A DNA stretch of 64,000 bases from Escherichia coli (GTDB lineage Bacteria > Pseudomonadota > Gammaproteobacteria > Enterobacterales > Enterobacteriaceae): assembly GCF_017348835.2 (NCBI RefSeq), contig NZ_CP071375.1; one strand, 5' to 3'. The number at the start of each line of letters is the position of its first letter. Position 1 is the stretch's first letter. The position numbers were made by a program. Below, one piece after another: positions 33,201 through 36,200 of the stretch.

Positions 33201-36200
33201 CGAGAGATTGAGAAATGGCGCATATACAACTGGTCAAACAAACCTCTTCTGGTTTACTTCTCCCGGCGACGCCGGAGAGTTGCGATTTTCTGCATCAAAT
33301 CAAAATAGGTGAGTGGATACACGCAGACTTTAAGCGTGTGCGTAACTACGCATTCCACAAGCGTTTTTTCAAACTCCTGCAACTGGGATTCGATTACTGG
33401 ACTCCGGTCGGTGGGGCGATCACGCCTCGCGAACGAGAACTGCTGTCTGGTTTCGTGGATTACCTGTGCGAATCAGTTGGTCGGGAACACACATCAGCCC
33501 TGAGTGATGCCGCAGAGCAATACCTTAACACCGTTGCGACTCGTAGAACCCGGGATACGGCGTTGCTAAAGTCGTTTGAGGCTTTCCGCGAGTGGGTAAC
33601 CATTCAGGCCGGATTTTACACCGAGCATATTTATCCGGACGGTAGCCGTGGGCGTCGGGCAAAATCCATCGCTTTTGCGAATATGGACGAAGTCGAGTTT
33701 CAGCAGGTTTATAAATCTGTACTGAATGTGCTGTGGAACTGGATTCTGTTCCGTAAATTCTCCTCTCAGGAGGAAGTTGAAAATGTGGCCGCACAACTAC
33801 TGGAGTTTGCGTAATGGTGAATTTACGTAAAGCGGCTAAAGGCCAGATGTGCCAGATCAGAATCCCTGGCTACTGCAATCACAATCCCGAAACCTCTGTG
33901 CTGGCGCATTACAGGCTGGCGGGGACGTGCGGAACAGCGACAAAACCACACGATATGCAGGCGGCGATAGCCTGTAGCTCATGCCACGATCTAATCGACG
34001 GGCGGGTAAAAACCAGCGATTACACCAAAGAAGAATTGCGCCTGATGCATGCTGAAGGGGTTTTTCGCACACAAGAAATCTGGAGAAAGAAAGGTCATTT
34101 ATGATTTACCCAACGAATACAGGAAAAAGCGGAGAACACCTTCGCCTCACCACGCTGGAAAGTGTCTGGATTCAGGGAAAACTACGTATGTGGGGGCGCT
34201 GGTCGTATATTGGCGGTGGCAGGTCAGGGAATATGTTCAATCAGTTGTTGGCATCCAAAAAACTGACGAAAACAGCCATTAATGAAGCCCTGCGCAGAAT
34301 GAAAAAAGCGGGAATAGAGAAAGCTGAGCTGGAAGCGTTTTTGCGAGAGATGATCAACGGCAAGCAAAAGAGCTGGCTGGCGCATTGTACTGATGCAGAG
34401 GCGTTATGTATTGATCGAGTCATAAGTGAGGTGCTGGCAGAGCATCCAGGATTGATTTGCATTCTCCGGCAACGCTATGAAGGGCGGGGGATGGCTAAGC
34501 GCAAAATGGCTGAATTGCTAAATGATGCACACCCAGAGTGGTGTTTTAGCACATGCGAAAAACGGATTGCTAATTGGTTAGCTGTTGCTGAGTATGCCCT
34601 ATATATTCCCATGCGTGAATCATTTGCTGAGAAAATGGCTTGATTTCTTACGTATAAACTGCTTCAATTTTGCTATGCTTCGCAAAGCTGTATCGCGAGG
34701 CGGATTGCAGACATGGACATCGTAAAAAAACCGCTTAATGCGGTTTTTTTACGTCAGGAAAGCAGGGGAGAATGCTGCTAGTTGGGCAACTGGTCTTTCT
34801 GCTCCAAATTATAACAGAGACCAGTTATAGTTTCGGTGCTGTGTTTTTTTTACAATATTGTGATAACACATTGCTGGCGGGAGTTTTGATATTTCTTGGC
34901 AGGGGCTGATGATGCGTTATCCTGATGTCGTCAACTCATATAAAATGAGATGAGAGATCATTGCAGGGTGGTTTGTAATTCGCTGTTTAGCGGGACAATA
35001 TGTTGTCTGATACAAGACACCCGACGCCTCAGATTACTATAATAAAGACGAAGCATCCTTTGTATTGACCAACCGCCTGTTTAGGCGGTTCTTTCTGGGC
35101 TGGTTTATTGTATGCCAAATGATTATTAAAAAGGTTGTGTTAATAACAAAATCCGAAATAATATGCCTGCATATTTTTATCTTGCTTATATTCTGCATAT
35201 TGTGCATAGCAGGCTCATCCCTGCAATCAAAACTGTATGATGAGTATTTTTTGTTTTCCTTTTTTCCAGTCATCTGATGATGACCTGCTTCTTTTTAATC
35301 CGGATCGACATCAGTTTTTTAAGATAATTCCTGCGAGTTATATGCATAAATGCCACAAACTCCGCATTTTATGTGGTTGGGAGTTGCCGGGCGCGCAGTG
35401 AGTTTGCTAAGAAAACTCCTGCATGGTGAATCCCCCTGTGCGGTGGGGTGATACCATTAACCTTTTCTGTCGCCGACAGGTATCACGAACATTTTGTTCA
35501 CCGGGAGGCACCCGGCACCATGCACTTCAATAGATTCTCTCCACATTATGGATATTCTTTCAGAATATCCCACGCAGACTTTGTGTAAATGTTAACAAAT
35601 GTGCGTTTTATTTGATCTGATTCGCTGTTTGAGCGTCCAAAACAACGGTATATATAATCCTTTACTATATGACATATGTGAGGAAAAATGGGTTTTCGTA
35701 GCGCATCAATTCTTACGTTGATTATTAGTGGGATTATTATCGGGTGCACTGATGCTGTATCGACAAATTATCATGACCGTACATCATATTACTCCGATAA
35801 AGCAATAGAGACACAGTATGTGAGTTCATCTGAACGTACTTCTGATGTTAGTGAGGATATCCGTCTGTATGCCCATCAAATCAAGAGCGCCATCGAAAAA
35901 CAGTTCGGGGATGCGAGTAAGTATTCAGGAAAAGAGTGTACACTGAGAATGCATATGGCCCCGAATGGCCTTCTACTGGAGGTTAAAAGAGAAAGTGGAG
36001 ACCTCGATTTATGTCGTGAAGCGATGAATGCGATAAAGAATGCTGATATACCTGCCCCCCCTTCGCCGGAAGTATATAAAGTATTTCAAAATGGGGTGCT
36101 GGATTTTAAACCCTGATATTTATTGTTTTGTAATAAACGGTTTCGGCTTAGGTTTGTTCTGACACAGCTACGGCACTGAGCTAAATTTAGCGGATAGTCA

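Follow-up and report, generated by a model that had tools for sequence, protein, structure and literature searches.

The window analysed here is a 64,000-nucleotide (nt) stretch of Escherichia coli chromosomal DNA (contig NZ_CP071375.1), and the interval under study (34644-35687) lies between a Q-like antiterminator gene and the lysis cassette of a Rac-type lambdoid prophage remnant. The interval opens with a short leader and an intrinsic terminator, continues as AT-rich DNA, and closes with a copy of the RNA family STnc100 and the upstream region of the first of two genes for TolA-like lipoproteins. The surrounding region (34101-36700) is 100% identical in strains PE164, F2_81 and others; 446 of 5426 complete E. 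coli genomes contain 80% of it or more.

The Q-like gene (34101-34643, plus strand, with its TGA stop codon at 34641-34643) encodes a protein of 180 amino acids (aa) that matches the Pfam family DUF1133 with 355.6 bits and also matches PHROG 753, 'anti-termination protein Q-like'. The Pfam model of Phage_antitermQ (PF06530) scores the protein at 25.1 bits, just below its cutoff of 26. We built a profile from 15 homologues, 32-93% identical to the window protein; searched against the PDB, it matched only the Q21 chains 6P18_P and 6JNX_P (E 1.8e-7), colinearly and in two stretches that cover residues 14-52 and 95-178 of the Q-like protein. Comparison of the Q-like profile with phage 21 Q in hhalign gave a probability of 93% (E 3.3e-7). 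On sequence-profile grounds, the DUF1133 protein is a relative of the Q21-family antiterminators. We found no mention of DUF1133 in the open-access literature.

To the DNA that follows this stop codon we compared the post-stop DNA of 12 DUF1133 loci, the IMG/VR contig L028, and phage 21. A reading made from the sequence only (the sequence-only reading) had placed a strong terminator about 85 nt past the Q-like stop, and this is borne out: a tR'-like intrinsic terminator, GTAAAAAAACCGC-TTAAT-GCGGTTTTTTTAC, occupies 34722-34752 as a 14-bp hairpin that begins 79-81 nt past the stop. Its folding free energy (dG) is -19.7 kcal/mol (z = -5.8), and none of 200 shuffled sequences was equally stable. 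The minus-strand fold is equally good, so that the terminator is bidirectional and symmetrical in silico. A consensus scan missed it; a likely reason is that the T-run, being able to pair with the A-run before the hairpin, was counted as stem. A hairpin with a U-tract is found at the equivalent place in 13 of the 14 loci, phage 21 included, and is weak in Rac-SA53; the window stem (ACCGC/GCGGT) is set apart from the common ACCCGCC/GCGGGT by a paired deletion.

Between the stop codon and the terminator, close relatives share a near-invariant leader block, TTGAYT..TTACGCAYAAAC..TGCTTCAAT..TAYGCT-TCGCAWAGCTG-TATCGCGAGGCG, in which TTCAAT stands between TTACGCAYAAAC and TAYGCT and after which come about 20 variable nt and the terminator. 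The block is carried by the E. coli phages 666R9 and 683R6, by prophages of Salmonella, Citrobacter and Enterobacter, and by L028; in L028 it is separated from the stop codon by 75 nt and is thus maintained as non-coding sequence. The Providencia and Edwardsiella phages, with protein identities of 43% and 32%, have near-consensus promoters at the same positions (TTGACT-N16-TATAGT and TTGACA-N16-TAGTAT, respectively), followed by TAYGCT, GCGAAGCTG and the terminator.

The window leader, read on the plus strand, begins with TTGATT (34640-34645), which overlaps the Q stop and may serve as a -35 element; the same position is TTGACT or TTGACA in Citrobacter, Providencia PSTCR8lys and Edwardsiella EPP-1. 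The spacer motif TTACGTATAAAC (34648-34659) lies in the same place as the Q-binding elements of lambda and phage 21 and could have a comparable function, and TTAC(C)G.A.AAA is kept across the E. coli, Providencia and Edwardsiella relatives. It is followed by TTCAAT (34663-34668), a weak -10 candidate with a 17-bp spacer from TTGATT that is equivalent in position to TATAGT in PSTCR8lys and TAGTAT in EPP-1, and by TGcTATGCT (34671-34679), which may be either an extended -10 or a sigma-dependent pause element (SDPE). The first T, the A and the last T of TAYGCT are invariant in 11 of 11 close and distant DUF1133 leaders carrying the block, and TAYGCT aligns with the phage 21 -10 hexamer CACTAT. 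The initial-transcribed block TCGCAAAGCTGTATCGCGAGGCG (34680-34702) is likewise near-invariant in relatives.

The sequence-only reading had found no convincing -35/-10 pair in the leader. This holds for a consensus pair, but the comparison gives two candidate assignments. According to one, TTGATT and TTCAAT would form the promoter, transcription would start near 34675, and TATGCT (34674-34679) would be the pause element; this candidate agrees by position with the distant relatives. According to the other, TGcTATGCT would be an extended -10 with a start at A34684 and AAAGCT (34684-34689) as the pause element. Both predict a leader RNA of 66-77 nt with its 3' end at 34748-34752.

The second element of the interval is STnc100. 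Positions 35391-35577 (plus strand) match the full Rfam model RF02076 (model positions 1-206) with 86.6 bits (gathering score 47; E 3e-18), and this copy folds with a minimum free energy of -63.8 kcal/mol (z -4.1). Its core (35421-35523, plus strand) consists of P1 (35421-28/35516-23), P2 (35432-48), P3 (35448-55/35479-86), P4 (35487-99) and P5 (35501-15). With E-values admitted up to 10, STnc100 is the only Rfam family that passes in 34600-35700; isrK, Thr-leader and similar weak matches rest on the terminator hairpin. ARAGORN found no tRNA or tmRNA gene in the whole window and Rfam no tRNA match. The sequence-only reading, which had recognised neither a tRNA nor a small RNA (sRNA) in the interval, therefore stands for tRNAs but not for small RNAs.

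The STnc100 copy is preceded by TTGCCG-N18-TAAGAA (35384-35413, plus strand) with a TG extension at 35405-35406, a motif that suggests promoter activity. Scanning IMG/VR for the STnc100 pattern yielded at least 120 loci, with 54 unique cores among the matches listed. Among these listed matches, 93 of 95 unique members have TTGNNN-N16-19-TANNNN ending 4-14 nt before GGTGAATCCCCC, a pattern found in 3.1% of random 60-nt windows; since the promoter is placed just before GGTGAATCCCCC, the RNA should start at the closing stem. A perfect GC-rich terminator ends 47-56 nt after the P5/core in 59 of the same 95 listed members. No terminator is present in the copies of the window, mEp460, RSHH22 and L063, and a scan of 35300-35700 finds no terminator-like site; where the family terminator usually sits, and where the Rfam 3' hairpin aligns, the window has an AT-rich hairpin without a U-tract (35550-35570, plus strand). 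Transcripts of the window copy should therefore run on into the TolA-like gene 165 nt downstream. Most likely, the terminator-less STnc100 would act as, or be co-transcribed with, the 5' leader of that gene. Clustering of the first open reading frames (ORFs) downstream of STnc100 in 135 instances was uninformative, as spurious ORFs dominate.

STnc100 is a known family. E. coli EDL933 has 11 copies, one of them confirmed by Northern blot (PMC5331693), and one copy has been reported 75 nt downstream of stx2B (PMC12370729), a placement that we confirmed in L133. The family is related to the PasD sRNAs, for which association with Hfq is reported from RIL-seq (bioRxiv 10.64898/2026.05.13.724894). 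The 5' half of the window copy also matches the DNA directly after stx1B in H-19B; EcOnc42 is an sRNA located 3' of stx1 (PMC7547250), and we infer that it is probably the same element as STnc100.

Across the unique STnc100 cores the closing stem covaries (GCAU/AUGC versus GUGU/ACAC), and the fold comprises a conserved P2 hairpin, variable central hairpins, the P4 hairpin and a conserved P5 hairpin, CCGGGAGGCACCCGG. A survey of the IMG/VR loci L011-L130, among the matches listed, revealed that most classes have a P4 loop complementary to the linker following P2, and that this complementarity takes at least six unrelated sequence forms (found for example in L096, L107, L105 and L125): ATCAGCA/TGCTGAT, CTGGTG/CACCAG, CCAGTC/GACTGG, GCCAGTCTG/TGGACTGGC, AAGTCATG/CGTGACTT and AATGACCG/TGGTCATT. 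The helix has a median length of 7 bp, which shuffled loops attain in a median of 2.4% of trials. This strong covariation supports a pseudoknot in STnc100, an element that the consensus structure line of Rfam does not contain. The window copy belongs to a minority class that forms the equivalent helix as a plain nested hairpin (35448-55/35479-86); a second member of this class, in L057, shows a compensatory change there. Contig L057 itself holds four STnc100 copies of different structural classes (5017-5131, 7250-7361, 7520-7623 and 7781-7871), three of them in tandem about 260 nt apart.

The gene downstream of STnc100 (35688-36116, plus strand) encodes lipoprotein 1, a protein of 142 aa with a TolA C-terminal domain (Pfam TolA, 82.6 bits; an NCBIfam tolA match to the C-terminal part only), and a lipobox (IIGC); the gene has the ribosome-binding site GAGGAA. 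A sigma-70 promoter-like site, TTGAGC-N18-TATAAT (35629-35658, plus strand), with 10 of 12 consensus matches, lies 22 nt 5' of this ribosome-binding site and is conserved in mEp460 and also, apart from one change, in RSHH22. This proximal promoter would permit expression of lipoprotein 1 from a repressed prophage. RefSeq treats the gene as a pseudogene without its N-terminus, yet the ORF is intact, with ribosome-binding site, signal peptide and lipobox, and is full-length in mEp460. The second gene (36267-36662, plus strand) encodes lipoprotein 2, 131 aa in length, again with a TolA C-terminal domain (Pfam TolA, 54.6 bits; PHROG 5772) and a lipobox (VAGC). One may speculate that two late-region TolA-domain lipoproteins act in the exclusion of Tol-dependent phages or colicins.

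Composition sets the interval apart. The sequence-only reading described about 0.9 kb of AT-rich, ORF-poor DNA past the terminator, which agrees with our measurements on 34644-35687: a GC content of 40.6% versus 47.8% for the window, at the 7.7th percentile of windows of the same size, and a longest stop-free frame of 88 aa, at the 1st percentile (median 245 aa). Its 5' part (34753-35010) is lineage-specific non-coding DNA with no protein-family signal, which about 450 of the 5426 complete E. coli genomes and two IMG/VR contigs carry at an identity of at least 99%; it has no match in 50,697 phage records. The following block (35011-35390, plus strand) is the 5' non-coding part of the TolA module; it contains a promoter-like site from the consensus scan, AAGACA-N18-TATAAT (35014-35043), and a stem-loop at 35071-35090 (AACCGCCT-GTTT-AGGCGGTT). 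The latter is the second stem-loop that had been noticed around 35074: it is present, but it does not exceed chance (z = -1.8), as 10 of 200 shuffles fold as well.

The block 35011-35390 is common to E. coli RSHH22 at 83-94% identity, where the shared DNA again lies ahead of STnc100 and a tolA-like gene, in other surroundings, and from 35497 onward the window is 99.9% identical to phage mEp460_ev081, which carries tRNAs and a different Q upstream. Since RSHH22 and mEp460 share it elsewhere, the TolA genes come as a module with their own upstream non-coding DNA. The idea of acquired regulatory DNA serving the TolA-like genes is upheld in part, by this module linkage and by two promoter-like sites upstream. 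A distant BLAST search with 34751-35390 against E. coli genomes and phages gave no informative further relatives. The mosaic joint with mEp460 at 35497 lies within STnc100, where the invariant P5 segment begins, which suggests that phage modules recombine with one another at the element's conserved ends.

What follows the terminator on the same strand differs among relatives: a 190-aa ORF in 666R9; tRNA-Thr and tRNA-Gly in 683R6; a tRNA gene pair in each of the Salmonella, Enterobacter and Citrobacter loci; the pertussis-like toxin genes eplBA in Rac-SA53; TciA and then STnc100 in a Klebsiella phage; and a methyltransferase with HicAB in a metagenome contig that has the Q of the Citrobacter locus. 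The remark that this slot often carries tRNAs is thus true of the relatives but not of the window.

The wider gene order is that of a Rac-type phage. Upstream are genes for DUF1367 (33215-33814) and YbcO/DUF1364 (33814-34104), placed by RefSeq and Pfam. The lysis cassette (36857-38087, plus strand) encodes a phage 21-type holin, a lysozyme and Rz/Rz1 (Pfam Phage_holin_2_1 and Phage_lysozyme; RefSeq essD, rrrD and rzoD). Directly after it comes trkG (38207-39682; about 32-43% GC), which is regular cargo of this phage type, because the phage-derived records 666R9 and 683R6 share the layout. Directly 5' of the nin-like genes, and inside the prophage, RefSeq names iteA and iteS (about 29405-32798; iteS ORF 30534-32798), an anti-phage pair of an ATPase and an S8 peptidase. 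Further above-threshold Rfam matches in the window are the RalA antitoxin RNA (22754-22932), IS009 (42094-42292), FnrS (18327-18444), MicC (48250-48370) and, on the minus strand, McaS (14854-14949) and the ALIL pseudoknot (23826-23942).

A Q cassette, as defined by Yin et al. (bioRxiv 10.1101/651190), consists of a Q gene, a promoter, a -10-like pause element, a terminator and late genes, and the leader and terminator described here appear, from their sequence, to fit this definition. We consider it probable that the interval is the start of the late operon: a DUF1133 Q-dependent cassette followed by a cargo slot that contains 260 bp of lineage-specific non-coding sequence and then the TolA-lipoprotein module with its STnc100 copy. 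The conserved promoter and Q-loading region (34640-34702) would adjoin the Q stop and be followed by tR' (34722-34752). In the absence of Q, an RNA polymerase that initiates at about 34675 or 34684 would halt at the U-tract, freeing the leader RNA; Q loaded at the -10-like pause element (TAYGCT and/or AAGCT) would allow read-through into the cargo and lysis genes. The start sites, the pausing, the action of Q and the co-transcription are in each case those that the conserved features and homologies would predict. The suggestion that the leader and terminator form a Q-utilisation/tR' unit is supported: a Q21-family gene lies upstream, the leader and terminator are conserved, and lysis genes follow on the same strand.

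Several observations weigh against this explanation. The AlphaFold2 model of the Q-like protein, made from a 15-sequence alignment, is too poor to confirm the fold (mean pLDDT 50.7). The consensus scan finds no consensus sigma-70 promoter in the leader; of the two candidates, TTCAAT is without the key A at hexamer position 2, and the extended -10 is without a -35 element. A leader hairpin at 34677-34701 has no compensatory changes and is broken in two relatives, so that the conservation of the leader probably reflects DNA-level signals and not RNA structure. The genes after trkG, ynaK and a tail protein gene, are pseudogenes in RefSeq; since the prophage is degraded to a remnant, the late switch may be vestigial. 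Carried to its end, this line of thought makes the terminator the mere end of an early/nin-Q operon and a bidirectional insulator, in keeping with its symmetry and its function on both strands in silico, with no working late promoter and a cassette that is dead in the remnant. We regard this as unlikely, for the weak-looking block is nearly unchanged in the phages vB_EcoS-666R9 (complete) and 683R6 (partial) and in four other genera, is kept even without an overlapping coding sequence in L028, and has TAYGCT invariant at three key -10 positions; furthermore, the corresponding place in phage 21, which has a homologous protein, bears an annotated promoter and a short RNA.

The content of the slot can also be explained in other ways. 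The STnc100 copy could be a functionless recombination relic whose 3' part and terminator were replaced at the mosaic joint, leaving the TolA gene to its proximal promoter only; the joint with mEp460-type DNA does fall inside the element, and the canonical terminator is missing. Nevertheless, the terminator-less version is kept with an intact promoter and all helices in mEp460, RSHH22 and IMG/VR contigs, the changes in RSHH22 preserve pairing (for example, A to G in P4), and a second member of the window's structural class, found in L057, has a compensatory change from C-G to U-A in P3, which makes decay improbable. Rho-dependent termination could still separate STnc100 from the TolA gene, contrary to the run-on transcription proposed above. 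Another explanation is that the ORF-poor DNA is coding after all, for at least one small hydrophobic protein such as a type I toxin or membrane peptide. The 70-aa hydrophobic frame noticed at 35065-35277 exists, a second hydrophobic frame of 45 aa (34772-34909) begins 20 nt past the terminator, and GGGGAG precedes the ATG at 34772. None of the stop-free frames of at least 35 aa in 34751-35420, the 70-aa frame included, has a Pfam, PHROG or NCBIfam match, however; the 70-aa frame has a TTG start, lacks a Shine-Dalgarno sequence and, in its only diverged homologue, RSHH22, is broken by a frameshift after 37 codons; GGGGAG, with 1 nt between it and the ATG, is badly spaced as a Shine-Dalgarno sequence; and RefSeq annotates nothing here in the genome records listed from among about 500 matches. 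We therefore hold coding to be very unlikely. By eye, the 45-aa peptide looks unrelated to that of Gifsy-1 'orf45', which follows IsrK.

A further reading concerns STnc100 itself. Its complexity is unusual for a simple base-pairing sRNA, and for this reason it might be more, although we give such a reading a low probability: STnc100/PasD would be a compact, promoter-proximal pseudoknotted domain, built as a four- or five-way junction whose joining sequences are near-invariant and whose loop-to-linker pseudoknot covaries, and in this lineage recruited in cis as the leader of the TolA-lipoprotein mRNA and controlling its stability or expression. We rate this proposal as doubtful; if it were true, STnc100 would be a modular structured RNA family with a conserved core that binds some cellular or phage factor. 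According to RNAduplex, neither the predicted leader RNA nor the 3' tail of STnc100 pairs with downstream mRNA regions any better than shuffles do.

As a whole, the locus is a previously uncharacterised member of the known Q cassettes together with a known RNA family in an unusual gene-fused form, and these findings overturn nothing in current understanding. They do map the late switch of the DUF1133 Q antiterminators in a concrete form that can be tested; this branch controls cargo such as the pertussis-like and LT-II toxins in Rac-type phages. They also place a known, widespread prophage RNA in a slot that looks empty, and the terminator-less, gene-fused STnc100 and the pseudoknot covariation are cheap leads on the function of an abundant RNA family.

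Among known systems that produce a short RNA at the late promoter, StxS of Shiga-toxin phages is a short pR'-tR' transcript that can act as an Hfq sRNA (PMC7547250). The window RNA would likewise arise by constitutive termination just past the late promoter and before cargo genes; the window leader has no detected sequence similarity to StxS. IsrK of Gifsy-1 (PMC4825925) is a 77-nt RNA with a 5' hairpin and a terminator, downstream of antQ, and its promoter is not called pR' by the authors. In layout IsrK (RF01394) and the window are alike, with a -35 hexamer at the antiterminator stop, a short terminated RNA and read-through into downstream genes; the window is not a member of the family (21.6 bits with the isrK model versus a gathering score of 50), and the weak match reflects the shared layout. 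The AntQ of Gifsy-1 is annotated as phage 82 Q-like, and the true isrK follows it at the same position. In L138 (1501-2889), a DUF1133 Q variant with a different C-terminus of about 35 aa is followed by a true isrK (75.5 bits) that is accompanied by c4-a1b1, the C4 antisense RNA and an ORF6N antirepressor, and the apparent joint is within the 3' end of the Q gene; the C-terminus of this variant has no similarity to Gifsy-1 AntQ. The IsrK locus has the look of an immI-type module, as in phage P1, set into the late-promoter slot. The put antiterminator RNA of HK022 was also considered and set aside; inspection, a weak test, revealed no motifs shared with putL or putR.

With the other STnc100/PasD sRNAs, the window copy has in common the full-length match, the promoter, the helices, the location between Q and the lysis genes, and the orientation. 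It differs from most of them in that it lacks a Rho-independent terminator and abuts a TolA-like gene.

The closest known system is the Q21/pR'21/SDPE/tR' cassette of phage 21 (structures 6P18 and 6JNX), the antiterminator of which is homologous to the window Q-like protein. The two systems differ in that the window protein belongs to a separate Pfam family, DUF1133, the direct-repeat AGCAA subsites of phage 21 are absent, and the -35/-10 geometry of the window candidates is not that of phage 21. They agree in that the promoter region, a candidate one in the window, starts no more than 10 nt from the Q stop and a phage 21-type holin lies downstream. The phage 21 start region, TTGACA-N18-CACTAT-TCGCA-TAAGCTG, resembles the TCGCA-AAGCTG of the window, and phage 21 has an annotated promoter and a terminated RNA of 50 nt from the A of TCGCA, comparable to the 66-77 nt predicted for the window RNA.

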